From Nemertoderma westbladi (Eukaryota > Animalia > Xenacoelomorpha), in assembly GCA_032718475.1 (NCBI GenBank), contig JAUCBJ010008889.1, forward strand, positions 1-64,000: a DNA stretch of 64,000 nt, given 5' to 3'. A model generated the notes under the pieces. That model was not told the DNA's origin. It ran no database searches and was given only the letters and a program-made list of their open reading frames with translations. Positions 16,501 through 57,480 of the stretch are shown in pieces. Within the stretch, counting starts at the first letter, position 1. Each line of letters begins with the position of its first letter. The translations under genes were made by a program, and so were the position numbers.

Positions 16501-17092
16501 TACCATGGCTGATCTCATGTCATTCTTGGATGGCGAAGTGAAATTACAGCTCATAAAGCAGTCCAGAGAGAAGACACCGGAAAACAAGGTAAGTGAGAAA
16601 CCCGTCTCTAGGAGAAAGGTAACACCAGTGTGTTATACAGACGGCGGCGAAAGCCAGACTTCTCAAGGAGAGGATAGCAGGAAAGACACTGAAAGATCTT
16701 ATTATGTCAATAAAACGCCTAAAGAACCGGTAAGTAAATTCAAGTCTCGAACCAATGACAGGAGAGAACAGGTAAGAAAAACTCCTCCTACGTCTCCCAA
16801 GAGAATTCAGGTGAGAAAGCCCGAAGAAAGAACGAGTGTGCACAATGTTATTCAAAATAAGGTAAGTAACATCAAACCGAAATGTGCGCTATGTGACGGG
16901 ACTCACCGTTTGAATATGTGTGATGAATTCCTGAAGAAATCATTAGCGGAGAGACGGGAAGTCATGTGGGATAAGCGTTTGTGTTATAATTGCCTCAGAC
17001 AAGGACACCAACGGCGAACCTGTTACTCCGACACAAGGTGTGCAAAGTGCGGTGCGAAACATCATATCTTGTTGCACACTGAATTCGAGTGA
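13556..17092 (+). CDS. gag: BEL/Pao Gag, 1178 aa, with a long N-terminal extension and coiled-coil repeat
   Basis: DUF1759-like KFNGDEMKWLPF..LSNGEKLRFLIECLEG; BEL-type triple knuckle CALCDGTHRLNMC / CYNCLRQGHQRRTC / CAKCGAKHHILLH. Confidence 0.93.
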   Translation: MSDTKQNLSDSLLDTTICDLDRSVERVKQKFNSPPTVRKIIPPVVISEPRLVQHRRSIIGTRAQVKRDQEAAEQQQLTSQELISQRSDSSSSEDTVELTPERGAKMTDAVYSDPLLILPAAVLTRLLIVVEEHQIDWARSKRSTKDSYAGYTREELKSIVESQWNFPGPGLPFDLSEAAWEDIHRMGVTKETVDPAVWKRSAAGYVQGFVSSMERVEKQLFQQPQGPQEQGQLLYQVRERILRIRLILSAFEEASKRRQDTSLQVAVKTWFQRVSLQVQGTTQWKAQLEERSTHGESTDATFSQVESEATAEKPHKRDAIDIYLSDYQRFVGDEELRRRLEGLSPNSEGAQRVLDAIDVDRLAANQAKFNESIRIAKVQEEQVKKKRIEDRKIAAVAAAVAAAEAERKAVEAERKAAEVERKAAVAAAEAERKAVEAEIKAAKVERKAAAAEAEAERKAAEVERKAAEAVAEAERKASEETAQLELENLQEKQDNFNKQLTASNMQMMNRSTPKRQGYTSSEEGNTTDQEGGGNRSRLSRRKRMSHRQKLPDLPPAVRRQLNNTNLGSTEPTDQIIKIERLPTIVDEPEIIRPVLEITPSVIETPVLPEPTFKFPLHSTKLSVPRGTAPETVSVLDSKRNIKDISPVVPRLPATTLADPASAVDWVDERRRGMDILLGKMEENRVRSSQQVRELEGTVQQLKGTVKESRLELQEVQQSIALERDKLANLQKGIPPPPVTMCQPVRSEVSHAQGVEPTRIYTASEVETPIVNPIKGNYRPVDNDIPYRPDHNPRNLYTDNSILNNTMAQESFTCQMARTEARQAVKVGEIVKFNGDEMKWLPFNEYYKDNIQNSVLSNGEKLRFLIECLEGSPKLMALKFIGHPDGLRQVWDTLNIRYGNRNNIAKYLYAKLVAPRKFISSGIIEFSDEIQEICRQLDWLGKSHEYQSSMVIGAVASTLPKGGVGTRWDKKVLYMMEQQQRDPTMADLMSFLDGEVKLQLIKQSREKTPENKVSEKPVSRRKVTPVCYTDGGESQTSQGEDSRKDTERSYYVNKTPKEPVSKFKSRTNDRREQVRKTPPTSPKRIQVRKPEERTSVHNVIQNKVSNIKPKCALCDGTHRLNMCDEFLKKSLAERREVMWDKRLCYNCLRQGHQRRTCYSDTRCAKCGAKHHILLHTEFE
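14735..14990 (+). repeat. Coding minisatellite in gag (AAEAERKA / AAEVERKA)
   Basis: GCAGAAGCGGAAAGAAAGGC-like units repeated in frame. Confidence 0.9.
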
Positions 17093-17252
17093 AATAGTCC
17101 GAGTCAGGTAAGTGATTCCGAACTACATGTCCAATTCAGTGATGTGAACGACACTGATCAATCTGAGATGGAAGGATTCTATACGGACGAGTTCTCCGAT
17201 GAAAACGAATCCTGTTACATGATAAATACCGCAGTGTATCGAGCACTCACGT

Positions 17253-20200
17253 ATGAAAAAGATACAGACAGCACACCTCACCCTAACTACTTCTGATCGA
17301 CAACCATCTTGGAAAGCGCCATCTTCCAATGTAGGAATCCGAGCATTTCCTGTAGTACAGGTAAGGGTCCACGGACCTAAAAGGAGTTATGTAGTGAACG
17401 CCCTCCTTGACTCCGGTAGTACAGGAACATTCATCGACAAAGAACTAGCCGAAGACATCTTTGCTGGACAACCCAAGTTCCGAACTAAGCTAAACATGTC
17501 AGGAATTATGCAGGTTTGGAAATCTACAGTAATTGCGGATTATTATGTAGGTGCGTTGTCCACCCCCCAGGATGAACTAGGAGAACATAGTATAAGGTCA
17601 GTAAAAATGGTGGCGATAAAGAACTTCACTACCACCCAAGTGGAACCTTATAACTGGGATGAGGACGATTTCACCCAGCAGCTGGAAATACCTAGATTCA
17701 ACACCGATTACCCTGGAGTGCAAATACTCATCGGTCAAAACGCGCATGAAGCGCTCGAGACATTGGAGAAACGGCCCGCTCAACCGCGACCACTACAAGC
17801 TTATGCGGGAAGAACTAGAGTGGGTTGGTACTTTACTGGCCCTTCCCGTAGAACTCTCATGGAAAGATTACCGAAAGACCAGGTATGTCAAGTGAGAGAA
17901 TGGGAAGTCGAGGGCAGTGAGTTAGATGATCTAACTGAGGGAACACCATACTCCTCAGATAATGACGATGTCCACCAACTTTTCGATGAGGAGAACACCA
18001 TCGATCTCCTTAAGGAAAACGAGACTTGGCAAAACCAAGTGAACTTATGTCAGCTCCTTCTTCCATCAGAACGAGACGACTATAACGACGAACTTAATGA
18101 CGTCATTGAACGATATAATGCCAAGACTCGGGATGAACATGCCGTACGATTCTTTACTCAAGAGGCTGTAGAGCCCAATTCCTACGATAAGGCCCTATCG
18201 GTAGAGGAAGAAAGAGGCAAGCAGATCCAAGAGACAACTACACGTTTTCTTAAAGATCAAGGTAGATATGAGATCGGTTTACCTTTCCGAAAGCGAGAAC
18301 CAAAGTTCGTAAACAACAGACCCTTGGCGGAGAAAAGAATTGCTCAACTACATCGACGCCTTACGGCAAATTCTTCAGCTAAAGAAATGTATCAAACGCA
18401 GTTGAAGAAGTTTATTAGCAAGGGATATGCGGAGCTAGTACCGGAAGAAACACCTATAACTGAGAGAACGTATTATTTAACTCACCATTACGTTCCCAAA
18501 CCCGGTAAACCACATGAGGTACGGGTGGTGTTTGACGGCTCCGCCCTCTATATGGGCCAATCCCTTAATTCTGAATTGCTACCCGGACCCAACTTACTCC
18601 AATCATTGTTGGGAATACTTTTAAGATTAAGACAATATTCCATTGCTTTCGCCTCAGATATAGAAGGCATGTTCTTACAAGTCAAAGCGCTGGATAGGGA
18701 TCGAGACAGCCTACGATTTCTGTGGTGGCCTGAAGGAGACCTCAATCAGAAACCGGTGGAGTACTGGATGACCATCCAGGCTTTTGGGATAATCTCGAGC
18801 CCTTCAAACGCCTGTTCCGTGGTGCGCACCACTGCGGATGACAACCGAGACGCCTTCTCTAAAGAGGTGATTGACAACATTAAGCGGGATATATACATGG
18901 ACGACAATCTAAAGTCCCTTCCATCAGTCGAAGAAGCCATCGATGTCGCTAAAGGAACGGTAGAGTGCTTAAAAAGAGGTGGATTTCGATTAACTAAATT
19001 CACCAGCAACTCCCGTGAGTTTCTGGAGTCGATCCCGGTAGAAGATCGAGGAGCAAAAGACCTGGATCTAATAAAAGATGATCTCCCAGAAACTAAGACC
19101 CTTGGTTTGAAATGGGACACCGAAAGAGATATCCTGTTTTTCCAACTAAAACAGCGAGATAATCCAGTTCGGACTAAACGGATTTGTTTAAGTATCCTGA
19201 GCACTTATTTCGATCCATTGGGATTTATTAGCCCAGTTATATTGATTGCTCGGAGTCTAGTACAACAAATGTGGCTTGAAAACCACTCATGGGACGATCC
19301 ACTTAAGGGAGAATTATTAAAGAAGTGGATGAAATGGGAAGATTCTCTACCAGCCATCGAGAACTTTATAATTTCCCGTTCATATTTTGGTCATGTTCTC
19401 CCTACGTATTCCTATCAACTCCATGTGTTTGGAGACGCCAGCGATATGGGAATAGGTATAGTAGCCTACCTAAGGGAGGAAACTCCGGACGGAATCAAAG
19501 TCGCCTTGGTTACTTCTAAGACATTGATAAACAATAAGTTGAAAGTTCCTCGAGCGGAGTTAAAAGCGGCTCTATACGCTACAGCCATCGGCCGGAATGT
19601 AACAGAACAGATCGACTATCCACTGGAGAAAACTGTATATTGGACCGACGCTTTACTCGTGTTGGAGTATATAACCAATGAAGTCTGTCAGTTCAGCGTC
19701 TTCGTTACCAACAGAGTAGCCATTATACTCAGTCGCACAACGATGGATCAATGGAGACATTGCCCCGGAACGATTAATCCAGCAGACATCGCCTCCAGGG
19801 GAGCAACTCCACAAGAACTGGTAGACACTCCAGACTGGTTAGGTGGACCCGACTTCCTCTACAAAGAAGAAGAAGAATGGCCTCCTTATCTTACTACAGC
19901 AGAGATTAGACAGGCCAAGGGAGCGGAGAAAGTCAAACCTAAAACTCGGGCGAGTAAATCGAAGTTATTCAAACCCATGGTAGATCTGTCTGTACTACAT
20001 ATTTCCGGAGACGACGCTTTGGATCAGAAATCCACAGCCACAAATAAACTTGTTGTGGAAATCCGTGAGAAGGATTGGAAATCTGGAATACCAGACGTCT
20101 CGCAAGGACTCTCACCTCTTCTGCAGAGAGCGATACATCACTACAGTTCCTGGAATCGGCTCTGTAAGGCCGTTACATATTTAAAGAGATGTTTTCACCA

Positions 20201-21671
20201 TCACTACTCCGGGATGAAGGCCAAAGGTGATACCGTTCCAATAACATCAGTGCAGGTCCATGTTATTAAAGATCTTCCCAAATATAAGATACCCGACAGG
20301 TTTCTGAAGGAGAAGATCAGTTATCAGGAGCATGAAGAAACCAACAAGCAGATGCTGAGACTCCTGCAATGCTATGAGGATTCCGATAAGTATTTCCTGT
20401 TGTTGAGAAATCCACAGATGCGCTTAAGGGATCGTTTCTCTAGCACAATGATAGATGGGTTGATACGTGTTGGAGGAAGATTAACGAATGCTCCACTATC
20501 CTTTGACACTAAGTTTCCCATACTCATTAGAAATCTTGAAATACAAGTCAAGATGATTGTAGACGTTCACAGCAAACTTTATCATGCTGGTAGGGAACGA
20601 GTTCTTAGCGAAATTCGAACTCGCTATTATTTTTATAAACCTCGTAGAGCTCTGAACCAAGTTCTTAGGAACTGCATACCCTGTAGGAAAGCATTCAGTA
20701 GGCCTTTAACACAGCGAGAGGCAGAATTACCTAGGGAACGAGTAAGCTTCTATGAACCACCCTTTACTAATACCGGTGTGGATTTATTTGGCCCTATTGA
20801 AGTATATCGTGCTAGGACTATAGTCAAGAGATGGTGTGTCATCTTTGTTTGTATGACTTGTAGAGCTATCCATCTCGACATGGTGAACGATTTATCTACC
20901 AACAGCTTTCTATTAAGCTTACGACGACAGATCGCTCGCTTTGGCACTAGTAACACGATGAGATCTGATAAGGGAACAAACTTCATTGGTGCCAACAATG
21001 AAATCAAAGCTTACGTCAAAGATTGGAACCAAAGACAGGTGGACGATCAGCTACGAGTAACAGCGTCTAGCTGGACCTTCAACGCCGCCGACGCCCCTTG
21101 GTGGGGAGGAAGTTGGGAGAGATTAATAAGAAGTGTGAAGACAGCATTTCACTTTATAGTGCCTTGCCGCGCGTATCTCACCGACGAACTTTTGCGGACG
21201 TTAATGGAGGAAATCGCCGCCTATCTCAACGAGAGACTGCTTATGCCAGTCTCATCGAGTCCCGATTCCCTGGAAGCGCTAACACCCGCGCATTTCCTAC
21301 TAAAGAAACCTGTAGCCATGCTCCCACAATCGGAAATCACAGACGGAGACGAATACTGCCGGCAAACTTGGCAACTCATGCAGTTGTTATCCTGTCGTTT
21401 CGCTGATCATTTTGAAAAACATCATCTGCCCATGCTACAACTTCGAACTAAGTGGTTTGCGCAGCAAGAAAACGTCAGCGCTGGAGACATGGTTCTTATT
21501 GTGGATGTAGATCTTCCACGTAAGCGGTGGCAGACAGGTCGTATCATCGAGACTCACATCTCTGATGATGGTTTGGTGCGATCGGTAGAACTCGTCGTCA
21601 TGCGACGTAACTTCAAGAAACCGGGAATTGTCTTCGAGACGCAGCAGCTCAATCGCCCAGTTGGTACCTAA
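17253..21671 (+). CDS. pol: BEL/Pao Pol (protease, RT, RNase H, integrase)
   Basis: ALLDSGST (PR); RVVFDGS, SDIEGMFLQ, YMDD (RT); HVFGDAS, PRAEL, WTDA (RH); H-H..CIPC, GVDLFGP, RSDKGTNF, WERLIRSVK (IN). Confidence 0.97.
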   Translation: MKKIQTAHLTLTTSDRQPSWKAPSSNVGIRAFPVVQVRVHGPKRSYVVNALLDSGSTGTFIDKELAEDIFAGQPKFRTKLNMSGIMQVWKSTVIADYYVGALSTPQDELGEHSIRSVKMVAIKNFTTTQVEPYNWDEDDFTQQLEIPRFNTDYPGVQILIGQNAHEALETLEKRPAQPRPLQAYAGRTRVGWYFTGPSRRTLMERLPKDQVCQVREWEVEGSELDDLTEGTPYSSDNDDVHQLFDEENTIDLLKENETWQNQVNLCQLLLPSERDDYNDELNDVIERYNAKTRDEHAVRFFTQEAVEPNSYDKALSVEEERGKQIQETTTRFLKDQGRYEIGLPFRKREPKFVNNRPLAEKRIAQLHRRLTANSSAKEMYQTQLKKFISKGYAELVPEETPITERTYYLTHHYVPKPGKPHEVRVVFDGSALYMGQSLNSELLPGPNLLQSLLGILLRLRQYSIAFASDIEGMFLQVKALDRDRDSLRFLWWPEGDLNQKPVEYWMTIQAFGIISSPSNACSVVRTTADDNRDAFSKEVIDNIKRDIYMDDNLKSLPSVEEAIDVAKGTVECLKRGGFRLTKFTSNSREFLESIPVEDRGAKDLDLIKDDLPETKTLGLKWDTERDILFFQLKQRDNPVRTKRICLSILSTYFDPLGFISPVILIARSLVQQMWLENHSWDDPLKGELLKKWMKWEDSLPAIENFIISRSYFGHVLPTYSYQLHVFGDASDMGIGIVAYLREETPDGIKVALVTSKTLINNKLKVPRAELKAALYATAIGRNVTEQIDYPLEKTVYWTDALLVLEYITNEVCQFSVFVTNRVAIILSRTTMDQWRHCPGTINPADIASRGATPQELVDTPDWLGGPDFLYKEEEEWPPYLTTAEIRQAKGAEKVKPKTRASKSKLFKPMVDLSVLHISGDDALDQKSTATNKLVVEIREKDWKSGIPDVSQGLSPLLQRAIHHYSSWNRLCKAVTYLKRCFHHHYSGMKAKGDTVPITSVQVHVIKDLPKYKIPDRFLKEKISYQEHEETNKQMLRLLQCYEDSDKYFLLLRNPQMRLRDRFSSTMIDGLIRVGGRLTNAPLSFDTKFPILIRNLEIQVKMIVDVHSKLYHAGRERVLSEIRTRYYFYKPRRALNQVLRNCIPCRKAFSRPLTQREAELPRERVSFYEPPFTNTGVDLFGPIEVYRARTIVKRWCVIFVCMTCRAIHLDMVNDLSTNSFLLSLRRQIARFGTSNTMRSDKGTNFIGANNEIKAYVKDWNQRQVDDQLRVTASSWTFNAADAPWWGGSWERLIRSVKTAFHFIVPCRAYLTDELLRTLMEEIAAYLNERLLMPVSSSPDSLEALTPAHFLLKKPVAMLPQSEITDGDEYCRQTWQLMQLLSCRFADHFEKHHLPMLQLRTKWFAQQENVSAGDMVLIVDVDLPRKRWQTGRIIETHISDDGLVRSVELVVMRRNFKKPGIVFETQQLNRPVGT

Positions 21672-26076: not shown

Positions 26077-27219
26077 TGTAAAGGCTTTAGCGTAATTAGC
26101 CGGTTATTTTCCCCGTAAAGTACTCTGTAGTTGGTTTAACCGGCATAAAAGGCCGTGTCCTTACTGTATTGTTGTTTTAGAGGACATAAAAGCCATTTCT
26201 TCTGTATGTGTACTTTAGCGGACATGATTAGCAATTCTATGACGCAATAAGCCGGATCCTCTTGAAACAGTGTAGATACCATGACGACGGCTAACAGCTG
26301 ATATTGCCATGTAGAACATCTCTTTGTTCTTTGTTCTCTCTTTGTTCGGTCGACCAATCAGAGCGTTTTTTGCCTCTGTGTTGGAGATGGTATATAGAAA
26401 CTAGGGAAGTGAGTCAGTATATGATTTCTTCCACAGCCTACAACACCGGCGTGGAACCTCCGTGTTTCAGTCTTTAGCTTAACATTAGTAGGCTTAATTA
26501 TAGAGCGTATATCCGTTATCAAACCATATCAATTCTTATCACACTAACTTACTTAACATTACTGCTTTGCTGTCGGTTATTCATTATATTTGTTGATGAA
26601 ATATTATATTCGGAATACTGATAAACAATCAGACACCCCAATCTTCTTGATATACTAAAGGTTAGAGAGACCGGATACATATAACGATTGCGACTTACAT
26701 TAAGTGGTTTGAAGTGAATCTAATGCTATTTTATAGGCCCTATACGTATTGTCTGTTGTTCTCCTTATATGTGACTAAAATTAGTGAAGGTCGGCAGATT
26801 AGAGTGCAGTATTGTGCAGCATTGTGTATGATTGTGATTGATAACGAAGCATCTCCTAAAGAATGCGCCATATACGTGAATCTATAGCCATCCCGTTGCG
26901 TCTGGTTTAAGCCATAACTCTGTTTATATATTTAGAGCGCCACGTCCTAAAGGAACTGTTAATATTTCCCGAAAGTGAATAATATTGTCAGAGATTTATA
27001 TATCAAGATCAGTCGAATAATACAGTAGGTCTATCCCGCAATACGATTAGGCTTCCGAATCCAGTCTCCCGGGTATATCCAGCGGGTGAATGATCGCGCA
27101 TAGACTGGTTTCGGCTAATGTAGTGTATCAAACATTTGTCGTAGGCTAAAGACTATCTATTATCTAGAAGACATCCTAATTTGGCAGGTTAAACTGCTAA
27201 AGGTCTGAAAGCGCGAACA
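26077..27219 (+). repeat. 3' LTR
   Basis: Copy of 10142-11284; I saw only about three substitutions by eye. Confidence 0.93.
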
Positions 27220-28144
27220 ATAACGGATATAAAGTTCGGATTGCAGGGTAGGCAATAAATACAGTTTAATATTGTTCTGGTAAGAACAATAACGGATATT
27301 GCTTCTGTATTGCAGTAGGCAATAAAGCTGAAGTACCGGCAACCGGTACCCAGTAGGCCTGACTACCTAACCACCCGGACCGGTACCTACAGCAGTACAG
27401 GTACAGCAGTATTATTCGATTTTGATTATTATATACCAGTAGGCCTTAATTTAAAATCAGGGAGGGCCCGCCCTGGTTTTTTATTGAGATTTTACTTATT
27501 TCTGTCAAGTTTTATTTATTTGTAGGCCAATATTGACCAGAAGGCGTGTAAGCCTGCTCAGATTGTACAGATAATTTGTAGCCTTGACTGTTGTCTAACT
27601 GTTGTTAAGTCTGAACGGATTGCAGTGTGTGTAGAGCATCTGTCTGATAAAGTGCTAGTTAGGAATGTAGGGGCTTCAAATGCTGTGAGGTAAACCCCCT
27701 TTGAAAGAATAAGTCGTACTACTAGGTTAGAACGCATACTAACTAATCATTTCGGAGTCTGCATATACTATAGTTTATTTAGGCTTGATAGTAGTCTGCC
27801 ATCGTTTGGTCTGTACTTTGTTTGTGTAGTCTGTACAGGTAGCGTATAATTCTTATTTAGATAATTTGTAGGCTGGATAGTTGTCTGGCTGTTGTTAGGT
27901 CTGAGGAAATTTCGGTGTGTGTAGATATATTATATATCAAGATCAGTCGAATAATACAGTAGGTCTATCCCGCAATACGATTAGGCTTCCGAATCCAGTC
28001 TCCCGGGTATATCCAGCGGGTGAATGATCGCGCATAGACTGGTTTCGGCTAATGTAGTGTATCAAACATTTGTCGTACTATCTATTATCTAGAAGACATC
28101 CTAATTTGGCAGGTTAAACTGCTAAAGGTCTGAAAGCGCGAACA
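27220..28144 (+). repeat. Extra copy of the 5' leader (27220-27925) plus a second U5 end (27930-28144)
   Basis: 27220-27925 equals 11285-11990. 27930-28144 equals 11061-11284 minus 9 bp (AGGCTAAAG) and is followed by the TSD. Confidence 0.92.
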
Positions 28145-40899: not shown

Positions 40900-42858
40900 C
40901 CCACTTCCCTCAGTCCAATTTATTGGATGACTCATCAACCTAAGGGCGATTCTTCCAGCAGGCAACTCTCCCACTGCCCCCCTGTAGGTCCTCTTATTCT
41001 TCGCCCCACTCTCCTTGCCAATTCCAATTATCTTGGATCTGACCTTCCCTTCTCCTCCATCTTCAGATCGGGTCTTTCCGTCACCTCTCAGAACTCATCA
41101 TCGTCCCCTGGCGGAAAAATGCCACCCTTCATATCATCCTCACTGGTACATGTCACCTCTGCCGGCCTCCCCCTCAATATGTGCGCCGGCATTAAAGCTC
41201 CCAATGACCCTTGGTCATCCTTCAGTGCGCATAATGGCTTATCATTTAATGCCCCCTCGCACTCTGCCAGCCCCATGTACAACACGTCTCCTCTAACTTT
41301 CCTGTTTCCTTTGTCAACCTTTATCATCGGCTCCTTTCCCTTTGGATTAACGTTCTTACGTCCTATACGTAGGGGTATCTGTATACTTCTGATTTGGATC
41401 GGCGTCTCTTCCGTACATCTCTCCGGATATCTCGCCGTCCAATCTTCCCCATCCTTGTACCGGACCGGCGTCTCTTCGGGACATTTCTCCGGATATCTCG
41501 CCATCCGCCCTTCCCCATCCTCATACTGATACTCGCCAGGAACATCTTTGTTCCACCCCATTGCTTCTAGGTCCTGTGAGTCGAACCCATTCTCCTCCGC
41601 CCACATTTCTCCGGATTCATCTTCCACCCTTTCCACTATACGTGGATCCAGATCCATACCCGCTTCTGACTCCTGGTATCTTTCCCCGGGCTGCTTCTCA
41701 TATGGGATCTCCCCATCGCCCGTGTTTGACTTCTGCTTGGGCCGCTTCCCATATGGGACCTCCACATTGCCCATTTTTGGCTTCTGCTCTATGTCCTCAA
41801 CGGTACTGGACAGCATGCATCCTGAGGATTCGGACACGCTAAACAGGATCTTCATCTTCATTGGGCCACTGAGCGTCCATACGAATGGCGTAAGAATGGC
41901 CACCGGGTCTTGCTTTTTATTGTCACCGAAGATGGTTTGCAGCCTCTCGTGGGCTGTCAGACAATCCATGCCGATTATGAGACACACTTTCGGGACATAT
42001 AGTTTGGGTACGGAGAAGTCAAGGACATCCAGGTACCGGTATTGTTCGATCTCGATCTTTGCAGGTCGTCTGGCATTGATGTTGATTGAGTCTATTATTT
42101 GGATGGGTTCGATCATAGCCCCATAGTCAAACCCTGGTGTTGTCGCTTCAATTTCACACTGTCCCGTCCTCATCTTCATGACCTCGTTTTTGCTCGATAT
42201 CGTGGTCACTGCTATTTTACTTGGCCTGGTCTTCAACCCTATCTTCTTGGCCTCCCAACTCTCCATTAGCGTGAACACTGCTCCGCTATCGACTAATATT
42301 AATGTTGTAACCGATAGTCCATTTTCTCCAATTATCCTCACCAGTACTACTCCGAGTAGTACTGTTCTCTTCCTCCTTACTCCTGTGGTGCTCGTCGCCA
42401 TCCTGGTCTGGCCTCCAGTTTCATCAGTCTCGGCATACTTTGGTGGGTTCTCTCAACACCTAACCTTCTTATGTCCTCCCACTGTGCATCTGTGGCATAA
42501 CCCAAATCTCCCTGTATAGGCTAATCGATCTTCTTTCAGCAGTGCCTGCCACTGGTCGCAATCTATGGTCTTATGTGTCCCATCCCATATATGCACATGC
42601 TTTCTATGTAGCTAGCACCTGTAGTTTGGATTATAACGCTCTCTGTATAGCGTCTTGTGTATTTCGTCCAGATTTCATGAGATCTCGTGTCCACCTCCCG
42701 GATGAACTCTACCATTCTCCTTTCGTTTTCCGAATGAGTTTGACGTTCCTTCGTTTGGCCGCTTGCGGCGTGAACGTTTTTCCCTTTACCCAGTTGTACG
42801 GCCACGTAGATATTTGCTGCCCTTCTACTCTCCTCCATCGTCGGGTGCCACGGTTCAC
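40900..42858 (-). pseudogene. Deleted BEL/Pao remnant (gag knuckles, protease, integrase C-terminus; RT/RH absent)
   Basis: ILVDSGAVFT, LIIGMD and TPFVWTLSGP, then ECEGALNDKPL..ALMPAHILRGRP, all in ORF 41088-42401. A CHRC..GHKKVRC knuckle lies upstream. Confidence 0.8.
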
Positions 42859-44400: not shown

Positions 44401-45687
44401 TGTATGTATCTACGTCCAGTATAATGCAGTATAGCATATATATATTTATAATAATTATAATTATAATAATAATATATTTATTATATATTCAAACTATATA
44501 AGATATCAAATATATAGAAGGAGGAACACCGGTACGGCGGTACGTTTCCTATATTACTGTTTTACACTTTAAGGTAGGTACCGACAATTGCCACCGGGCG
44601 ACGTCGCACAGGTGGCAATTGTCGGTACCAGCTCGAAACAAAATAACATTCTTCATGCCATTGTTCCTGTGTCTAAACTATTTGTATCAATAATCATTCC
44701 AGAGGCAACTGTTGACATTCTCGAGTTGTATATCAAGGATTCCTTTGGGGTTAAAGCACCCTGCAAGAAGCTGACATGCCTTCGACATCGCACAGGGAGA
44801 GCTCCATGTAACGCCATGTTGCCCCACCTTGACCGTGTCGCCCCACCCTGACCACCCGACCCGGGGCTGGGTGTAAGAACATTAAACGAAACAGATCTTT
44901 CATCCAGCCTGAGAACACTCTGATCCCTCTCACGGCCAGGTGGCCTGGCCTCCTGTGCAGCAGAGTGGAACCTGTACCGAAAATTGATTCAAAGTCCCTC
45001 CACCCCCCAAGATTGACCAATGGCAGGAACCGGGAACACTAGCCACTGCTACTATCGGTTCCTGCCAGGGCACTTAATTTAAGTCTTAAACTCTATAGTT
45101 TCCTGTTTCCAAAAGATAAATACATTTAAAGAAAGATTAAAATGCTCACTCGGGAAATTATAGTATAGTATATTATGATTGTACAATTTTAAAATTGTGT
45201 GCGGTCATCCTTGATTTAAGAAAAAAAAATTGATTGAATGGCATTAAGACTGCCGGATGCCACTGATGCATATGACACCCCACCTCTTGATTGCATTACA
45301 GTCAAACAGTTTTTAACCGAAGCCATGTCAGAAACCAAGGTTGCAAGTACGCTAGAAACTGGGGTTATAGGAGGTAAGACAGAAAAATCATCGACTACAA
45401 AACACTGTTTCTCATCTGATAATGCATTAAAAGCCAAACATTCCAACAGATTAGTTATATCAGTAACTAACTTGTATCTTTTCTGGATCACTGGTATGTT
45501 TGGTACTAAACTTATTTGTCACATCTCTGTCCCCAGTCTGGACGTCCATCAGAATATATCGAGCAGCTTCGAAATCTTGTGTAGAAAACGCCAGCCAGCA
45601 GGATATAGTATTAACTAACTTATTGTGCGGAATTCCATGAGAAGAATACGGAGCCCCTAAGGTGACATGAATAATAAAAAAAAATTC

Positions 45688-45887
45688 TAACACGAACTTT
45701 GTCTTACTAACACGAACTTCGTGTTACTAACACGAAGTACGTCTTACTAACACGAACTTCGTGTTACTAACACGAACTTCGTCTTACTAACACGAACTTC
45801 GTCTTACTAACACGAACTTCGTGTTACTAACAGGAACTTCGTCTTACTAACACGAACTTCGTCTTACTAACACGAACTTCGTGTTAG
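45688..45887. repeat. Left subterminal 20-bp palindromic repeats (ACTAACACGAACTTCGTGTT)
   Basis: About 10 units, mirrored at 53371-53510. Confidence 0.95.
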
Positions 45888-46021
45888 GGGGGAGGGAAAT
45901 TCAAATTTCTATGGTATGGTATTATATTTCAATCATATAGGTACCACTACTGCATCACTGGTCTACTGCACTATCTGACTAGGGCCAATGTACTAAGGAC
46001 TGTTATTTATCAGTAACGATA

Positions 46022-49000
46022 ATGGATGGTACCGGTACGGCAAACCCTACCATGTTTGAATACATGAAGAATAGAGGTATTCGAGAAGAATTAATAAATA
46101 AAATGCGTGAGGATAGGGTTGATGAAGACGTGGTTCGAATAATGTCGGATTCTCAATTACAGGAATACATACCATGTTATGGCGATCGCGTCCTTGTTTC
46201 CGCTTTTTGTAATCTCAATGAAACCGCCAGGAGTTGTACCGGTACCGGAACTCACCTTGCAAGTGCCGGTAGTTTAAGTCGAAAAGAAGACACACTCGCT
46301 CGTTTGTGTAGCCGCCTTTCCAGCAAACGTAAGAATCCGACGAAGGTGAATGAACCGGGTCCGTCGAAGCGCACCCGTCGTGTTGAGTTGGGCTGGATGC
46401 ACTTTCGGGATGACGAAACTTACAAACAAATTCGCACTTCCTCAGTGGTGGAATTCGACATCTAACTGTCGACCGGCACACGTCTGTATCTGAAGTACTG
46501 AAGACCGGAGAAGAGTTATTTTTTGCCGGCGGCGTTTCCGCTCAAGGAGCCCTGAAGGATTTAATTCTGGAAATCCGGGACTTTCAGGGTAATTGTTTCG
46601 AAGACGATTCTATAACTATCGATGAGTTATATGATGTTACGAAGCTAAACATGTTGCGGTTGTATTTGTATTCACGTTGAGTCCAAGGGGTCCAAGAGGG
46701 GAACACGGTGAACGAGAGAGAGCAAGCCTTACACAGTTTAAAGACTTCTCTTATCTACAGTCCAGTTTCAGAATTAAAAAAATGTGAACCCAAAGTTGTT
46801 GAAATTGTAGAGCCTTGTCTTTCTGAACTACCGGGACTCTCTGAATCTCTACCACTAGTTCCACCACACGATTTGAATGAAACGCTGGAAGATATACTAG
46901 TGCGACTTGAAACCCAACTTATTGAAGATGGTGATGGACGAAATATAGTCAACGTAGACATAGACAATGCGCTCGACGGCGGATTCCGTAGATTTGAGAG
47001 GAAGAGCTTCGACCCATGCTGCTGCCTGGATGTTAAGTTCGTGGACGAAGATGGAATCGACGAAGGTGGTCCTTGACGCGAATTTATGAGGATAGCTATG
47101 ATTGCAATCAGAGATTCATCAATGTTTTGTGGACAGGACGACTCAAAATTCCTTAGTCTCGACTATAACTGTAAGTTACTATTTTAACAAAGTTTTATTT
47201 TATATTACCCCACCCCTTAGGGGGTCAAATAAGCATCTAATTTTTCTCCGATGGAATAGTTAATAGAATATTGTAATTAAATTAAAATTGTATTAATTTT
47301 ATTTTAGGTTTAAATAATGACCGATACCTGCTTGTGGGTCGTATGATTTCCTACATGATAGTACACCGTGGCCCATTTCCGAGTTTTTTCTCGTCTCAAC
47401 TTTTTGAGTTGGTTTGTAGCGGAGAAACAAATGTTACTATTACTATGGAAGATATTAATGACTATGATTGGAAGGCAGAAGTTTATTCGGTAAGTGAGTG
47501 AATATATTCTTTGTATGGAAATACACGCAATTGAATTTATTTATTAATTATGTTAATTATAGATAACTTTCATATTCTTAATCCAAGTAGATCTCTGTAT
47601 CGAAAACAGTGGAAGAATTTAAAGAAGCTGTGACCAAATCACAAGAGTTACTGGGGATGTCTGGCGGTATAAACCTGTCTCTCCACTTCGAAAACAAGGA
47701 CAATCTTGTCAAGAGCCTTATCAAGTTTCTTGTGGTCGATCGAATTCGGGAACCATTGCAACAGTAATTATAACGTTTCTTGGCTTGTCTTCTGATTTAT
47801 TTTCTATTCTGATTTCTTCCGTATCTGATTATTTTATTTTCCTTTCTGATGAAGCAAATCAAAATTAATGTTGGAATGAGTTAATTAATATTATTATAAA
47901 TTTATTATTTAATTCATTTTTATGAATATATTCTTGAAATTATTCCTAAAATTCATAATATAATAATAAAGTAATAAGCTACGTAATTTATTATTTTGAA
48001 ATTAGGTACTTGTTAAAATAATTGTGTTTGTAATTAATTTCTTTTAGATTGCGGGCGGGTTTAGAGACGCTTGGATTATTACGCGAAATTATCAAGAAGC
48101 CGAACACTTTTAAAAACGTGTTTATTGGCCAATCTGCGCGAATTCCTTTAGATCCATTTATAGTTGATCGTCTCTTTACAATACAGTGGTATGAGGCAGG
48201 GAGTAATAGGAGAAGAAGAGAACGGCGCACGATTTCTTACTGGAAGGACTTTCTCCAAGACCTTTCTGGTTATTAATTAATACAATAAAGGACTATTATT
48301 CGATAAAAAAAAGTAAGCGGAAAACACCGGTTTTTTACACTCATTTTCTGTTTAGCGAAATTCAACTATTCTACCGGAGTGGTTGAGTTTTACACGAGCT
48401 GGCAAGTTTTTAGCACGAGCGAAGCGAGTGCTAGAGTGGAAAAGGGGTGTTTTCCGTTACATTTTTATATCGAATATATTGTTTTATTTGAAAAAAATAT
48501 CATAAAAATTATCACTGTTTATGGTTAGGTTAAATATAAGTATATTTTAACAAATTTTAAAATTAGTGAAAAAAAAGTCTTTTTTTCACTAATTTTCAGA
48601 AAAATTAGTGAAAAAAAGTTAGTTTAATTCACTCATTTTTAAAAATATTAGTGAGAAAAAGCGGTTTTTTCAAATAAAGACATATTTATTTAATTAATTA
48701 TTTATTATCACTTAACTTAATTAATTACTATTAATAATAATAATAATTGGTATATTTAAAACTTTCAGATGGTATTGAGATTTCTGGGTTTACGGGTTCC
48801 ATTCAACTCGTTGATCTCCTGAATTTCGTCACCGGCTCAGACACGATACCTGCATTAGGATTTGAAGTAGAACCGTCAATTTCATTTATTCATCCTGAAG
48901 ACAGTTCAAATGAGTTTACTGTTGGACTGCCGAAGGTTAATACCTGCGCGATCGAGTTATCACTTCCTATTCTAGAAGATTATGAGATGTTTAAGGAGCG

Positions 49001-49046
49001 ATTGTCACGATGTATTAAAATGGTATCTACATTTACCACGGCGTAA
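46022..49046 (+). pseudogene. Transposon-borne HECT E3 ubiquitin ligase (G2E3-like HECT), five exons, disrupted
   Basis: HECT motifs: LDVKFVDEDGIDEGGP*REF, YLLVGRMI, LLNFVTGSDTIPALGF, LPKVNTC (catalytic Cys). GT-AG introns at 47171-47307, 47490-47590, 47764-48047 and 48269-48768. Frameshift ~46445; stops at 46678 and 47074. Confidence 0.85.
48295..48480. mobile_element. Small foldback/MITE in the last HECT intron
   Basis: TATTCGATAAAAAAAAGTAAGCGGAAAACACC ... GGTGTTTTCCGTTACATTTTTATATCGAATA inverted repeat around CACGAGCGAAGCGAGTG. Confidence 0.65.
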
Positions 49047-49279
49047 TAACATGACTGTATTACCTCATGACTTTATTATTAGATCGATAGAAATAAGGAA
49101 CTGGAACTCCAACCATGTTTTTAACTTTCAGATAAATGTTAATAAAGGAATATTTACTTGCAATATTACTGCAATATTATACTTATTAAATACTTTATAA
49201 TCATTAACTTAATTATAATTAATAATTAATTATTATATTATAATTAATATAATAAGAATTAATTAATAATTATAATTAT

Positions 49280-50476
49280 CTACTTTAACTTATATAATTT
49301 CGTTTATCTCTTTAATTAAGTTCAAGTACAGAGCAATTGCCTCAGAAGCATTTTTTTGGCACAGTCAAACCGTTTTCCGACATTAATAAAAGACATAGAT
49401 TATACACATCAATATCACAGGGCACAGTTTCGCGATAAGTTGCTTCTTCGATGCAAGTGTCTAGATCAGAGTTATTTACGGCAAAAAGTTGGTCAGTTGT
49501 TCCCCAGAGACATGGGCTATGGTACATAATATTTGGGCGGCCGTGTGGTACGTTGAGGTTGCGACTTGGACGAATACTATGTGCGTTCCAAATTTCTTTT
49601 ACAGAGTTCAATTCGTCCTGAATAATGGCAGTAAAACAAAATTGTACAACTGCTTTCGATATAAATGTGCCATCAAAAAGCCCCTGGTCTATGAAATCTT
49701 TAAAAAGATTGATCCAGTATTCAGCACATTCTTTGCGAAGGATTCCCCACCAACTCTCAATCCGTTGGTTGGCAGTACTCGCCCCGTCTAAATAGGCAAT
49801 CTCAACGTATCGATCCGTTCCATTTCGCCGTAAGAAGTGTTGGTAGCAACGAATATGTCCATTCTCAGTCCCGCAGCCCGCCCTAACTCGAATTGGACAA
49901 CCATTCAGCTGTTTGACTGTATCTAAAAAATAACTACCTATAAGTTTCGGATTGTTGTTACTATTATAAACGCGCAGCCACAGAATTTTCCTTGAAAACC
50001 CATCAATGCATCCACTGATACAGATCCCATACGGTTTTAATTTATCGTATCCGTATGTGCCAGATAAAGTTTGGACCACAGGCATAATATGATCTTCGAT
50101 GCAACCTTAGAGATTGGCACGATTCGACACCGATTGGATCCAAATCCTTAAGTATCACTCGCACGTCTTCCTTGCGAACCCTGAGACCATGTAGCCTACA
50201 CTTTGCATGCATCATACGATAGCCCAAAAGTCTTCCAGACCCATTCAATTCATGTTGAATAAATGAATAAACATCGTCAAAGTCGTCATATACACGACGC
50301 GAAAGGCCCATAGCATTAATAACGCGTTTAATTTGGCGAACTCCTATAAGGATATTATGATCCTTCTCCAACACAAAACTAATTTCCTTGTATGATAAAT
50401 CGAAGTATAATAGTATAGTAGTAAGAATAGTATATGATAAATCGAAGTACGTTTTGATGACTTCGTTGCGTTCCAT
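49280..50476 (-). pseudogene. Integrase-core (IS3/IS481-like) DDE transposase with N-terminal HTH, frameshifted
   Basis: GPNFIWHI(D)GYDKLKPYGICISGCIDGFSRKI, RVRAGCGTEN (second Asp mutated) and NQRIESWW. Frameshift near 50050. Confidence 0.9.
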
Positions 50477-50495
50477 TACTTGCGACAAAATAATG

Positions 50496-51378
50496 TAATT
50501 GTGCTGGATTACGCAATGAGGACGGCCACAAAGGGTGAAGACCTGGGATTCACACTTCAAGAACGCAGAAGTAGTAGATATCCGGCAACTACAGTCACAG
50601 ACACCGACTTTGCGGATGACATCGCCCTGCTCTCTAATACCCTAGCAGATGCACAGCTTCTACTAAATAAAGTGGAGAGGGCTGCTAAGGAGGTTGGATT
50701 GCATATAAATGCTACAAAGACCGAATTCATGACCTTTAATGTTGATGGAAACTTGACAACCATTGATAATAATCAACTAAGGAAGGTCGATGACTTCCAG
50801 TACCTTGGATCATGGATAGAGAGTAGCAAAAAGGACATAGAAGTTAAAGTTAGGAAAGCAAAGGCTTGGGTAGCTCTATCAAAAATGGATACCATCTGGA
50901 AATCAGATCTCTCCAGGCACCTGAAGACTAAGTTCTTTCGAGCCACAGTGGAAAGTGTATTTTTATATGGGGGTGAGACCTGGACACTGACTAAATCACT
51001 TGAACAACGAATTGATGGTTGCTACACAAGACTACTAAGGGCAGCCCTAAACATCAGCTGGAGACAACACATGACAAACGCCGAGCTTTATGGTACAATA
51101 CCACCTGTATCAACCACCCTCCGTGAACGCAGATTAAGATTCAGTGGGCACTGCTGGCGAAGTAAAGACGAGGTCATACCAGATCTACTTTTCTGGCAAC
51201 CAACTCATGGAAAGTGTAGTCGTGGACGACCGGCCATAACATATATAGATCAACTTGAAAGGGATACTGAACTTAGGAGAAACGAAATTGCGACAACTAT
51301 GGAGAATCGGGAAGCCTGGAAGGATCTCATTTCTACTGTCCGAGTTCGCTCGACCATGTAGTAGTATAGTAGTAGTAA
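50496..51378 (+). mobile_element. 5'-truncated RTE-clade LINE
   Basis: DTDFADDIALL, GLHINATKT, FQYLGS, LYGGETW, RRLRFSGHCWR, RGRP; (TAG)n tail after the stop at 51361. Confidence 0.92.
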
Positions 51379-52524
51379 AATTAATACACGGAGACACCAG
51401 AAATTAATAAAGTGACATTTGTGTGAGTTGATAATAATGCCAACAGTTGGCCAGTGATTAAACACAAACTCTTACGAGTTGATAATAGTGACATCAGTTG
51501 GTCAGGGATTGAACACAAAGTCTTCACTTGGCCAGAGATTACACACAAAGTCTTCACGATTTATTTCCAGTGCGGTCCCCCGTAACCATACTCCCCAGAG
51601 GAAATTTGTTCTCATTTCGAGATCATTTATGGATGTAAGGCGATATGAGCCCTTAATATACATTGCCTCCAAGAAAGACAAATAAGGACTATCGATAATT
51701 CGACTCATTTTGTTATTTATTATAATTACATCGCTTCTTTTAATTTTTGCCTAAATTATTTTAAATCTTTAAAAATTTAATTCCATTTAAAAAAACAATG
51801 ATAAATAATATCTATGTGTATCAGATTTCTCGCGAATATCACGCTATTCGACTGTAGAACAGTTAGTGGGGCAAATTTCCGCCGCATTGTAAATTTCTGT
51901 AATACGCTGAATTTACTGAAGGTATCGGTCAAAGAGGTCTTTATCAAGGAAGTGGTACAATAATGTGACACCGGGTTTATTGAATATGGTTAAGTTAAAG
52001 GAGTTAATTGACTTGTGCAGAAATGAAATTGAATTTTTGGGTTCAGTCGACAGGAAATTGAGCAGATATTAAACTTTTTGTGTAACGAATAATTCAATTT
52101 GATATGTATTTAATATGTTTAATGTTAATCATTAAATTTAATGTGATTTATACTTTATAGTGCTGTTTTAGAATTTGTAAATTTTGGTTCGTAAATCTGA
52201 TTAATTTTGTGATTTTTCCACTTTTTCTTTAATTGAAATTGTGCTGTGATTGATTGCAGGTAATATAAATGTGCTGTGATTGATTGCAGGTAATATAAAT
52301 CATTATTGTCGTTGATTTTTGGTCCAAAATAGTTATACATTTACTTATTTATTACATAATAACTATATAAAATCTTACATTATATTATTGTGCTATTTAT
52401 GTCTGTCTAACTGTACGTGCATAATTATTTCTTATTCACTGTACGATAATAACAATAATAATATGTATATAAAACCTTTCAACTAGTGCAACACTATATA
52501 TACAGACATAGTGTATAGCTATAA

Positions 52525-52608
52525 ACGGAAGGCGGCATACGGAAGGCGGCATAAGGAAGGCGGCATACGGAAGGCGGCATACTGAAGGCGGCATATGGAA
52601 GGCGGCAT
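52525..52608 (+). repeat. 14-bp tandem repeat (GGAAGGCGGCATAC) x6
   Basis: Directly visible. Confidence 0.9.
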
Positions 52609-53370
52609 TAAGAATGCTATACCGGCTTCAAATCATCAAAGTTGTGCCGCCGCAGCGCCCTATCAATGATTAATATCGCGAGATTCTAATCTTCAAGGCC
52701 ATTGACGTGTTCCTTAAGAAGCGAATCCAGAAAGTCATGAGCTGTACATATGCTTATTATTTCCATGAGGCCGCCCCAAATCACAACAAAGGGAGGATGT
52801 GAGGAATGCCGTGGGGATCTCAGTGGGCCTCTCGGCGAAAGCGTTGTCCTGCAAAGCGGAAGCGACTCTGTTCAAGTTTCGAGCTTGCGAGGACTAATGA
52901 GAAACGTCTAATGCTGTAAAAGGGTCTGGTTAAAGATGTGGACACAATGAACTGGGCGTAGCATTATTGTTGTGTGTGTGTGCTGTCCAGAGATAACATT
53001 ACTGCTGGCTGCGCGAAATAAAAAAATAAATAATAGAAAGTGTACTCACTGTTAACCAGTGAAGTATATCTTCTATTGTATTATATGAAATTGTAATGAA
53101 CAAAACCATTTAACTAACTTAACTAATGTTTGTAATGTTAGTATAGGAGCCACCTATCTGTGTGACTACGACAAAATAATGACCTACGACCTATTGGAAC
53201 CTAATAAAATTAATAAAGAAACTGAGAAGGTAACCGGTACCACAATTACCAATACTATCAGTATTGTAAGATAATGAACTATAAGACAGTCCTTATACAG
53301 TACAGTACTACCACTACCTACATGATTGGATTGCAATATACCACCCTTGTAATTTGAATTTCCCTCCTCC

Positions 53371-53510
53371 CTAACACGAACTTCGTATTAGTAAGACGAA
53401 GTTCGTCTTAGTAACACGAACTTCGTGTTAGTAAGTCGAAGTTCGTGTTACTAACACGAATTTCGTGTTACTAACACGAACTTCGTCTTACTAACTCGAA
53501 GTTCGTGTTA
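53371..53510. repeat. Right subterminal 20-bp palindromic repeats
   Basis: About 7 units of the same motif. Confidence 0.95.
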
Positions 53511-55409
53511 GATTTTTTTTTATTTTTAATGTCCCCTTAGGGGCTCCGTAGAAGAACGTTGCCAAGCAAAACAGAATATTGGATTGATAATTAAGGGCCT
53601 ACTGCTACTAGTAGGCATGACGACTGGTATCACTGTAGGATATACAGCCTACAGCTTGGAATCGCTGTTGTAATATCAGTCAGAGCCTACTTATCCAACA
53701 ATTCAAGGACCAGTTGCTATTGTAACCAACAAGTTAATGGAAAGTTATTCCCCATTGTTCGTTCGACTTCTGTTGAGGAACCATGCCTTCCGTAATTTGA
53801 AATGATTCAGATGTGACGTTGAAACTGAAACAGCTGCTTTATTACATGATAAACCATATATACTCAGATGTGTCAACTACATTAATGAGAACATTAAAGA
53901 ACATGGGCGCAAAGATGATGATGATGTTGTGAAATCGATTATATCATATATTGGTCAGGTGAGGTGAGGTGAAGTCAGTGAGACTGCAGTTTCACCAGAA
54001 ATCACTCATGATATGTTCCTCCAATTTCCGAAATGGAATATGTTGACGGGAAAGTTCCAAGACTACCTGAAATTGAAAGTATTTCCTGGTTTTTCAGTAA
54101 ACGCTGTCATTTACAGGTTAATGATCTCATTCTTGAAACAAACATTAAAAAGAACTTCGTTAACAGTAGAATGGAGTCTTCTCATCATATGCCCAAACCC
54201 TGGCATGAAAAGCAACTGTTTATGACTTTATAAACGACGTTAACTAGTTAAATACAGTCACAAGAGAAAGAATACATTAAGTCAGAGGTTTTGTGTATAT
54301 CTCAGTCAGATGAACATATCCTATACCGCCCTGATGACATAGTTCAAACCGAGCATAACATATTTATTAATCATAAAAAAAATCGAGCTGCATTGCTTTC
54401 TGGGCACGCCATATAGATTATCAATGATAATTCCATAATTTCAGGTTTTGGTGACACCGTCATTGTCGAATGTTAAGGAAACATATCTGACTCCCATTTC
54501 ATTTCGTGGAGCATATTCTTATGATCACAAAACTGAAAAAATTATTAAATTCGGTTAATTTTTCATCTGGCTTCGTGGTCATATTGTGTTGCAACGCCAT
54601 AGTTGAGTTGAGCCGGCCTAACCTTTTGTATCATATGCTGATAAATAAGCACTGTACTCTTGTTCTGAATGTTTCTACCCCCACGAAATCGACCATTGCG
54701 GTTCTAATGTGACCCTATTCTTAACTCTTTTATGATTAGTGGAAGCATTACTTTTAGCAATATTCCAATATTGCCTTAGCGCGATAACAGGTAAAAATTG
54801 GTTTCAACCAAGAAAGCCACAATATACCGGTAGTATGCTAGGCAGACTGTCAGATTAATGTATAAAAACATGTACCAGTACTGGCAGAGTAGGTGGAGGG
54901 CCCTGAATCCGCATTGTACCCGATAATATTCAGTTGAGCTAGCTCACCTCTTTTTTGTCATATCACAAGCGACGACTTCGAACATTATGAATAAGGGAAA
55001 GGCCAGCTTACAATAAACACTATAATAACCTATCAACGATGCATTTTTATATACACTTATTTATATATATTTATTTTTATATATACTACAGTGGACAGAT
55101 TCATACAGTTTCAGACTTTTTTTTTGCTCATGTCATTCACACCAACTAATTATTTTTTTTATTTTAATCTTTAATCCAGACATAACTGTCAATAAAAATA
55201 GAATTACATACGGAACAGCACAAAACAAATAAACCAGTTACATTAATTAATCTACTGTAAATAGTGGAACCAAATGTGTAATATTCCAATTAAGTATTAT
55301 TTACAAAGAAAAAGATATGTTTTCCATCAGTAGGATACGGGAAACAGTTAGAGAGAATGTTACCGATTATTGGATTGGACGATGCACGTAATCGCTTAAA
55401 AAGACTGCT

Positions 55410-56689: not shown

Positions 56690-57480
56690 GGTTGGTTCAT
56701 CGTTCGTCATTCTGGGAATTTTGAAAAGCATCCAAATACCGTTATTGTAAGCTACTCGTCATTTAGAGTATACACGACCTGAAAAATTGAATCTAGACCA
56801 GACAGCATTACAATATAAAGATGAACAAAACGCTTTAAAAACTTTAATTTTAACTGAAAGTGAGCGAGAACCGAATTTCCTAACGAGTGTATTACACCAT
56901 GCGTATAGGGTGCCAGTCTGACGCTTTATATCAAAATCATCATCAGTTGTTGAGTGAAATACATGGCCTAAGTAAATATATTTATCTACAATTTACAAGT
57001 ACTCACTATTAATATAAACCTTACTTGGTATAACAAACTGCACAATTTTTTGGCAAAAAATATAAACATTTATATTTTTCAAATTAAATAAAAATGACAT
57101 TGAAATAGTACCCGCGAATTCAACACAAATATTAATTAAATGTTGTAACTCAAATAATGAGTTAGAAAATAACCCCAAATCATCCACGTAACCTAAGTGA
57201 TTGGTTCGTTGACTACCAATACGGCACCCGGTATCCAAATTATTTAAGGCCATGCTTACGTCGTCAATGTAAATATTAAACAGAAAAGGGCTCAACAAAC
57301 CACCCTGTTTCGTACCATTGGTAACAAAAAAAACTATCAGAAATACAAGCACCCCATGATACAAAGAGTTGCTGATGACGATACCAATAAGCTATTAACC
57401 TAACCATAATTGGTGGAATACCAATCTTAATTATCTTATTGAATAATATAAAATGGTTTAGCCTGTCAAACTGTTCCAGA
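56690..57480 (-). pseudogene. LINE RT fragment
   Basis: NGTKQGGLLSPFLFNIYIDD..NHLGYVDDL..YIYLGHV. Confidence 0.8.

Follow-up and report, generated by a model that had tools for sequence, protein, structure and literature searches.

In the nemertodermatid worm Nemertoderma westbladi, a ubiquitin ligase gene of the HECT type travels inside a DNA transposon. The element occupies positions 45647-53550 of the stretch analysed here, hereafter the window, namely the first 64,000 nucleotides of contig JAUCBJ010008889.1, read on the forward strand. It is a decayed copy of a cut-and-paste transposon of the IS3EU/GingerRoot group, with a transposase gene and a HECT gene facing each other. The HECT gene is native cargo of the IS3EU family, a conclusion held with high confidence because it rests on several concurring observations: element ends and target-site duplication (TSD), two genes between them, other insertion sites, pairing of the genes in many relatives, and conserved introns and catalytic cysteine (Cys). 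An earlier sequence-only reading of the window had taken the ligase for a native second gene and not for a chance capture; the convergent pairing in relatives, the conserved introns and Cys, and cases from a fish and a limpet bear this out. As for its role, we cautiously favour a ligase that would act in trans on a host protein restraining the element.

Ends and arms of the element

The element begins with TAC at 45647 and ends with GTA at 53550. Long inverted arms lie at its extremities, and the same 6-bp sequence is found on each side:

45641..45646, no strand: left TSD, 6 bp, GAAGAA, read from the sequence
45647..46040, plus strand: left inverted arm, with the TAC end and ten 20-bp near-palindromic units (45687-45886)
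53233..53550, minus strand: right inverted arm, with seven 20-bp units (53372-53511) and the GTA end
53551..53556, no strand: right TSD, 6 bp, GAAGAA, read from the sequence

At the local composition, a 6-bp match of this kind would arise by chance with a probability of about 3e-4. The statement of the sequence-only reading that terminal inverted repeats and a 6-bp TSD bound two convergent genes is thereby confirmed. The arms agree at 38 of their 41 terminal bases and can be aligned up to an offset of about 390 on the left and about 318 on the right. On the 3′ side of its unit array, the left arm contains about 150 bp alignable to the right arm, and this segment covers the 5′ untranslated region (UTR), the ATG and the first codons of the ligase gene. 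Once a nested insert is removed (see below), the element measures 5,218 bp and the two ATG codons are found 375 and 388 bp from the termini. The symmetry of these offsets had been noticed earlier and is real. As stand-alone evidence of a native gene it has to be abandoned, because the distances from array to ATG are 135 and 209 bp, so that the symmetry is partly a coincidence.

Terminal repeats longer than 30 bp, TAY..RTA ends and a 6-bp TSD are the hallmarks of IS3EU/GingerRoot, and the window element has all of them. In PMC10045372, IS3EU is described by its TA..TA ends and by TSDs that usually measure 6 bp, and is merged with GingerRoot; TAY..RTA termini form part of its definition (PMC12730594). 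With the rva_4 DDE core of the transposase, these features support the IS3EU membership that the sequence-only reading had proposed. The terminal motif of the window element is also found in four related loci (L020, L029, L037, and L050). Contig coverage of the 20-bp arm unit (45687-45886) is far above that of the genes, which suggests that short non-autonomous relatives of the window's IS3EU family exist.

The HECT ligase gene

The ligase gene is carried by the plus strand and converges with the transposase gene. Its four introns are all of the GT-AG type and the frame is maintained over the junctions of its five exons:

46022..47170, plus strand: exon 1, with SAM-like helices (~46052-46261), a ubiquitin-like domain (~46382-46677), a linker and the start of the HECT N-lobe (from ~46885)
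47308..47489, plus strand: exon 2, weak Pfam HECT match (E 0.022); exon 1-2 join found in a contig of public run X4 (see below)
47591..47763, plus strand: exon 3
48048..48268, plus strand: exon 4
48769..49046, plus strand: exon 5, HECT C-lobe (Pfam HECT, E 4.7e-12), with NTC at 48939-48947 and a Phe four residues before the C-terminus

The five-exon HECT gene with its NTC motif was correctly recognised by the sequence-only reading. Read through with its stops as X, the product aligns to all 366 positions of a HECT hidden Markov model built without the window gene (E 2e-114), and it possesses the bilobed C-terminal domain of about 350 residues that is expected of a HECT protein. The catalytic Cys is retained in 76 of the 79 database homologues covering the site and in 25 of 27 loci, over both of the deep clades described below. 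The predicted fold of a homologue with 40% identity (P0140) contains complete N- and C-lobes, with a predicted local distance difference test (pLDDT) score of 85, and matches the HECT domains of SMURF2, NEDD4, and HUWE1 with E values of about 1e-13. The domain is very divergent, identity to solved HECT domains being 16-19% for most of the top structural matches. The protein is predicted from its sequence to be an enzymatically active ubiquitin ligase. In the window copy, exon 1 carries three lesions: the frame shifts near 46444, and stop codons are present at 46678 and 47074.

The N-terminal part had been described as a SAM-like helical segment, and the ubiquitin-like domain that follows the helices had been missed. 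The model of the N-terminus of homologue P0261 (pLDDT 88) shows five helices and, after them, a beta-grasp domain. Residues 102-213 of this protein superimpose on a Polycomb ubiquitin-like domain (ULD) with a Z score of 10.5 and a root-mean-square deviation of 2.1 over 80 residues; Atg8, UFM1, and SUMO come next. The profile check that had been advised for the spliced product is successful for HECT. For SAM, Pfam gives no match in the N-terminus of the window ligase, and SAM_1 exceeds its cut-off in two homologues only (P0262 and P0150, E ~1e-5). When the N-terminal module was used in fold searches, the matches were taken up by the ubiquitin-like domain, and the structural Atlas returned only unnamed clusters. 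From sequence, the identity of the helices as a SAM domain is not proven. The SAM-like/ubiquitin-like module is common to HECT types A and B (see below) and is kept in only 2 of 97 mostly fish HECT homologues. Relatives carry UBX-like modules of the ubiquitin pathway. Pfam detects no PHD/RING-like zinc fingers in the window gene or in its homologues. Apart from this, intron 4 contains a high-copy repeat (48270-48700) with a depth in the thousands, which is probably a small non-autonomous element.

The transposase

The second gene faces the ligase gene:

49290..50476, minus strand: IS3EU DDE transposase, intronless and broken (Pfam rva_4, E 6.5e-24)

It contains a frameshift at the first catalytic Asp (~50055), a change of the second Asp to Gly (49877) and a further frameshift near 49358, so that lesions are found in both genes and the copy is inactivated, as had been stated before. 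A small duplication is present inside the gene (50392-50449). When it is discounted, the first catalytic Asp falls at residue ~130, within the IS3EU range of 100-300. Compared by eye, the sequence motifs at each of the three catalytic residues agree with those of the IS3EU rows from Repbase given in the PMC10045372 supplement; the nearest Repbase/GingerRoot entries, also by eye, are IS3EU-2_SK, IS3EU-1_DR, IS3EU-1_CGi, IS3EU-1_TC, and AD_GR-003. Visual inspection of the window transposase reveals no HHCC motif. Pfam S1-like and HTH_21 matches in the window are below threshold and were disregarded. Among 1,144 candidates, 989 are related to the transposase at E <=1e-20. The best 120 belong to fish, echinoderms, molluscs, beetles, a frog, and an acorn worm, with identities of 45-66%.

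A peculiarity of the related transposases may be mentioned here. Among 33 of them with an open upstream frame, 18 show an in-frame hydrophobic stretch that resembles a signal peptide (L001, L002, L004, L007, L010, L012, L013, L016, L017, L018, L023, L035, L037, L038, L040, L049, L058, and L059). The stretch often terminates in a conserved small-residue/VLPxY-like motif. Such a feature is odd for a DNA-binding enzyme; the window transposase is devoid of it.

The ligase gene in related elements

The pairing of the two genes was examined in metagenome loci, using the best 80 of 521 confirmed transposase relatives, near-duplicates included (L076/L077, L006/L011), and two HECT profiles built in the course of this work. 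A HECT gene is present in 26 of the 80 loci. Among those in which 2.5 kb or more follow the transposase core, the figure is 18 of 22, and where 5 kb or more follow it, all 8 have the gene. Every one of the 59 HECT-gene domain matches (one genome-contig locus included) lies downstream on the opposite strand, and a reversed-sequence control gave 0. The upstream side is thinly sampled, as only 10 loci extend 2.5 kb in that direction. L054 served as bait in building the type-B HECT profile; Pfam alone independently confirms 10 loci. The transposases of the HECT-bearing loci are 37-62% identical. Inverted arms surround both genes in L002, L006, L011, and L054. An inverted repeat in L076/L077 was also considered as an element arm and is probably not one, since one HECT exon falls outside it.

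The gene structure is conserved as well. In six loci, 12 intron junctions could be placed; all 12 have the phase of the window's and 8 are at the same residue. The remaining 4, all of intron 4, are shifted by 4-10 residues from the window position. L015 and L020 are without these introns. Among annotated genomes, that of a fish has two instances of the N-terminal module lying at a distance of two locus tags from the transposase (PBY51_019564/566 and PBY51_019570/572), and in a limpet genome three contigs encode the same HECT protein, letter for letter, under separate accessions (XP_050401791.1, XP_050411309.1, and XP_050418981.1); these two cases are the sole yield of 30 proteins looked up. 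Genome contigs gave 8 related loci, read as eukaryotic contamination of metagenome-assembled genomes (MAGs); a HECT gene is found in one of these loci and a kinase gene in another. In viral contigs, 68 pattern matches included no relative. In fish gene models P0244, P0273-P0276, P0302, and P0304, the HECT clade is fused to caspase-CARD genes or to genes resembling those of the major histocompatibility complex, either by mis-joined annotation where the element inserted or by real exon capture.

Exchange, loss and replacement of the cargo

The HECT genes form two deep clades separated by a 100/100 branch, type A, to which the window gene belongs, and type B. On the transposase tree the two types interleave, and well-supported branches force at least 5-6 changes. 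A single clade of type-A transposases is rejected by the approximately unbiased (AU) test (p 7e-59). Over 22 pairs, six others having been dropped as short or duplicate, the Mantel correlation of HECT and transposase distances is r 0.29 (p 0.002). The co-phylogeny of ligase and transposase that had been suggested for examination is thus not found in its strict form, which the AU test and the interleaving of the clades reject.

Family copies without the HECT gene, viewed by the sequence-only reading as evidence against a native cargo, do exist: L037 is a complete TSD-flanked element of 2,885 bp without it, and L038 has arms but no HECT. Because both adjoin HECT-bearing sisters on the tree, loss of the gene is the simplest reading. 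Two other loci harbour a convergent protein kinase gene in the place of HECT. One is L086, a complete element of 9.3 kb with a 6-bp TSD (7853-17183), on a contig catalogued as part of a bacterial MAG; the other is L058 (2674-2922).

Other copies in Nemertoderma westbladi

Assembled contigs from four of the six listed public runs of the species (X1-X4) were compared with the element; summed depths were not taken as copy numbers. Contigs with loose ends exactly at 45647 are found in X1 (n=2), X2 (n=4), and X4 (n=1), which means that the left end is also joined to other flanks, that is, to other insertion sites. At least two distinct copies of the ligase gene occur in the species. An X2 contig joins 50482 to 53169 and represents a copy without the nested insert. 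The small duplication of the transposase gene is missing in X1-X3 contigs, and those listed from the same runs have Asp instead of the window's Gly at 49877. The 46444 frameshift is missing from other copies: X2-X4 carry an additional base at this place, and X1 shows a gap of one base. Copies more intact than that of the window are present in the species. No empty insertion site appears among the joints listed; one X3 contig stops at 45646, and X1 and X2 contigs continue across.

Run X4 brings evidence on the transcript. One of its contigs joins 47170 to 47308 over GT..AG, the 137 skipped nucleotides corresponding exactly to the exon 1-2 junction. This contig derives from a sister copy ~89% identical to the window's, whose variants are also found in X2 and X3, there with an intron. 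A second X4 contig starts at 45934 after 21 loose letters resembling a template-switch oligo used for complementary DNA (cDNA). It yields one more feature:

45934..45935, plus strand: likely start site of ligase transcription in the left arm, 88 nt 5′ of the ATG, from the start of the X4 contig

X4, on record only as 'DNA?', is likely cDNA. As cDNA, it would confirm intron 1 and place the start site in the left arm. Since the sister copy has its own indels, it is evidence of splicing and not of an intact mRNA.

Coding differences between copies were counted in 35 of the 40 listed difference rows (of 94); of the five left aside, two were non-coding, two fell at the frameshift and one gave an alternative letter. 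Relative to the window copy, silent and replacement changes number 9 and 10 in the diverged sister copy (p 0.03) and 3 and 13 in near-identical copies (p 0.80), both p values being against 25% silent. This pattern is weak evidence, at the level of sequence, for past selection followed by present decay.

Nested insert and surroundings of the element

The element is interrupted by foreign DNA upstream of the transposase gene:

50483..53181, plus strand: nested insert of 2,686 bp in the transposase 5′ UTR, with a 13-bp TSD (50483-50495, 53169-53181), foreign to the element proper

The sequence-only reading had called it an RTE insert. The insert is real, but only ~880 bp of it (50496 to ~51376) consist of the 3′ fragment of a non-long-terminal-repeat (non-LTR) retroelement with reverse transcriptase, presumably of the RTE type; the other 1.8 kb are different DNA. 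This remainder (51377-53168) is mixed, with high-copy pieces at ~51400-51600 and 52824-52887 and a 14-bp tandem repeat at 52525-52608. Its portion 51377-51837 is joined to different upstream DNA in an X1 contig, which therefore derives from another locus. No tRNA gene was found in the nested insert.

The window as a whole is rich in transposons. It contains a two-ORF (open reading frame) non-LTR element (3504-7261, minus strand), a Pao/BEL LTR element (13523-21668, plus strand), an ORF for a retroviral-type protease (41091-42452, minus strand) and a reverse-transcriptase fragment (56996-57391, minus strand). The segments 10142-11990 and 26077-27925 form a 99.8% direct repeat and are possibly LTRs.

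Possible role of the ligase

HECT domains form a ubiquitin thioester on a Cys of the C-lobe. This property, documented in PMC6063350, would apply to the window ligase. In the mechanism that we favour, promoters located in the two homologous arms would drive both genes inward, and the transposase would bind the 20-bp arrays and mobilise the element. The ligase would accept ubiquitin from a host ubiquitin-conjugating enzyme (E2) onto its C-lobe Cys and would use its SAM-like and ubiquitin-like N-terminus to reach a substrate. Acting in trans, it would likely tag a host protein and thereby aid the spread of the element. During evolution, its gene has passed from one transposase lineage to another; some copies have lost it, and in others a kinase gene stands in its place. 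Taken as a whole, host target included, this chain seems to us just on the probable side. A host target is preferred to a transposase target because the cargo has been swapped, lost and replaced by kinases; TET/JBP genes likewise move between fungal transposon lineages (PMC12730594). Such a pattern, and the argument is one from pattern, would suit a host-directed helper better than a partner tailored to one transposase.

A target within the element itself may also be envisaged. The ligase would then act on the transposase, either limiting its level or stripping it off DNA after strand transfer for gap repair by the host. We consider this possible though rather doubtful. The fixed convergent layout and the likely sharing of arm promoters would co-express the two proteins, the two genes show partial co-descent, and the N-terminal module is present in both HECT types. 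On the other side, HECT clades have been swapped across well-supported transposase clades, a kinase can occupy the HECT position, and most of the fish homologues are without the N-terminal module. That the protein, although native to the element, serves as a decoy or scaffold without catalysis and binds E2s, ubiquitin or the transpososome appears improbable: the strong divergence of its HECT domain, the UBX-like modules of relatives and the report of a non-functional HECT domain in G2E3 (PMC3673628) would fit such a role, but the catalytic Cys is retained over both deep clades and the lobes are complete in a model of high confidence. Least likely by far is a one-off capture of a host G2E3-like gene, in the manner of Pack-MULE elements, or insertion of a transposon beside a host gene. 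GingerRoot elements do capture host genes (22 of 77; PMC6839031) and the HECT gene is absent from some relatives. However, the captured pieces are fragments and not whole genes (PMC6839031), whereas here the entire gene lies within arms and TSD, and the zinc fingers of true G2E3 are absent. The same gene is found on the same side and in the same orientation in 26 loci with quite divergent transposases. Convergent pairing in relatives, conserved introns and the fish and limpet cases largely refute a chance capture.

Several observations weigh against the favoured reading, in one or another of its parts. No HECT-bearing relative displays both true ends and a TSD, as contigs break at the arrays. 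The HECT gene is missing from 54 of the 80 metagenome loci; most of these are too short, but 4 of the 22 long ones are also negative, and the loci are not independent, given the near-duplicates L076/L077 and L006/L011. The complete element L037 does without the gene. Ligase and transposase distances are partially congruent, the Mantel r being 0.55 for type A (n=9, p 0.016) and 0.23 for type B (n=13, p 0.09). Given the conservation of the transposases, one ligase could recognise many of them, so that swapping is compatible with a transposase target. Splicing is seen in a single contig of a single run recorded as 'DNA?', in a sister copy ~89% identical with its own indels, and the counts of silent and replacement changes come from a part of the difference rows. 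Finally, the activity of the ligase is a prediction, and its host substrate our best conjecture.

Relation to G2E3

The sequence-only reading had supposed that many annotated G2E3-like genes could be such cargo. The closest named homologues of the ligase are annotated G2E3-like. The name G2/M phase-specific E3 ligase(-like) is borne by 35 of 97 homologues, and by 5 of 10 in a second set, and in no case is a PHD family listed. By structure, the best match in the Atlas is true G2E3, with a template-modelling (TM) score of 0.87, against 0.75-0.84 for others. G2E3 and the 'GL-Metazoa' class IV HECT family share with the window ligase a highly divergent HECT domain (PMC3673628; PMC2837046). In contrast to G2E3, the window ligase has no PHD/RING-like fingers and possesses a SAM-like and ubiquitin-like N-terminus instead; it is multi-copy and resides inside a TSD-flanked element, whereas G2E3 is a single-copy host gene.

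True G2E3 combines zinc fingers with a non-functional HECT domain (PMC3673628) and is reported only after the split of chordates and echinoderms (PMC2837046). A transposon origin of the G2E3 HECT domain is therefore a possibility; these two HECT surveys make no mention of transposons. G2E3 matches have been found among copy-number-variable repeats in a fish (PMC5638112), and 20 G2E3 copies in a hadal sea cucumber have been read as an adaptation of DNA repair (PMC9700323). Many of the genes named 'G2/M phase-specific E3 ligase-like' may be transposon cargo. It is tempting to go further and to imagine, although we hold it only tentatively and rather doubt it in full, that animal IS3EU elements encode an active HECT ligase as an interchangeable anti-host weapon, that the multi-copy 'G2E3-like' genes of fish, molluscs, echinoderms, and beetles, published adaptive expansions included, are this cargo, and that the HECT domain of vertebrate G2E3 was domesticated from it.

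Known systems and significance

The closest known system is IS3EU/GingerRoot itself, with the same TA..TA ends, 6-bp TSD, integrase-like DDE core and long arms (PMC10045372; PMC6839031). IS3EU elements have been described as 'encoding two proteins' (PMC10853768), and Repbase IS3EU rows ending in _2p suggest that curators annotate a second protein. HECT is absent from the main text of PMC10045372, PMC11934779, PMC12730594 (supplement included), PMC6839031, PMC10853768, and bioRxiv 2021.09.26.461848. Full-text literature yielded no report naming an IS3EU-HECT pairing, Repbase records (which may name it), Kojima's 2019 review, subscription journals and bioRxiv supplements lying outside the search, and no full-text paper combining a transposon, a HECT domain and terminal inverted repeats. 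The pairing is probably unpublished.

Other elements offer parallels. The genes of maize MuDR (mudrA and mudrB) are also in a convergent layout. MuDR and the VANDAL elements of Arabidopsis, with VANC, use an extra gene for integration or anti-silencing and have promoters in their arms (PMC6446971); their transposase superfamily and accessory proteins are unrelated to those of the window element, so that the analogy is functional only. The TET+ IS3EU elements of rust fungi belong to the same superfamily and have the same termini, with an enzyme gene opposite the transposase and a cargo exchanged between lineages (PMC12730594). Their cargo is an alpha-kinase and a TET/JBP dioxygenase, whereas that of the window element is a ubiquitin ligase.

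In the literature searched, no earlier DNA transposon encoding a complete HECT ligase was found. The window copy adds evidence of splicing and of a start site, conserved introns, a ubiquitin-like domain and cargo swapping. The ligase would put a name to the second protein of IS3EU; how this superfamily is built and how it works have been called largely unexplored (PMC11934779). If many G2E3-like genes are cargo, G2E3 'expansions' such as the 20 copies of the sea cucumber merit re-examination. If active, the ligase would give a mobile element direct control of protein turnover, and its substrate would reveal a host factor that restrains the element.

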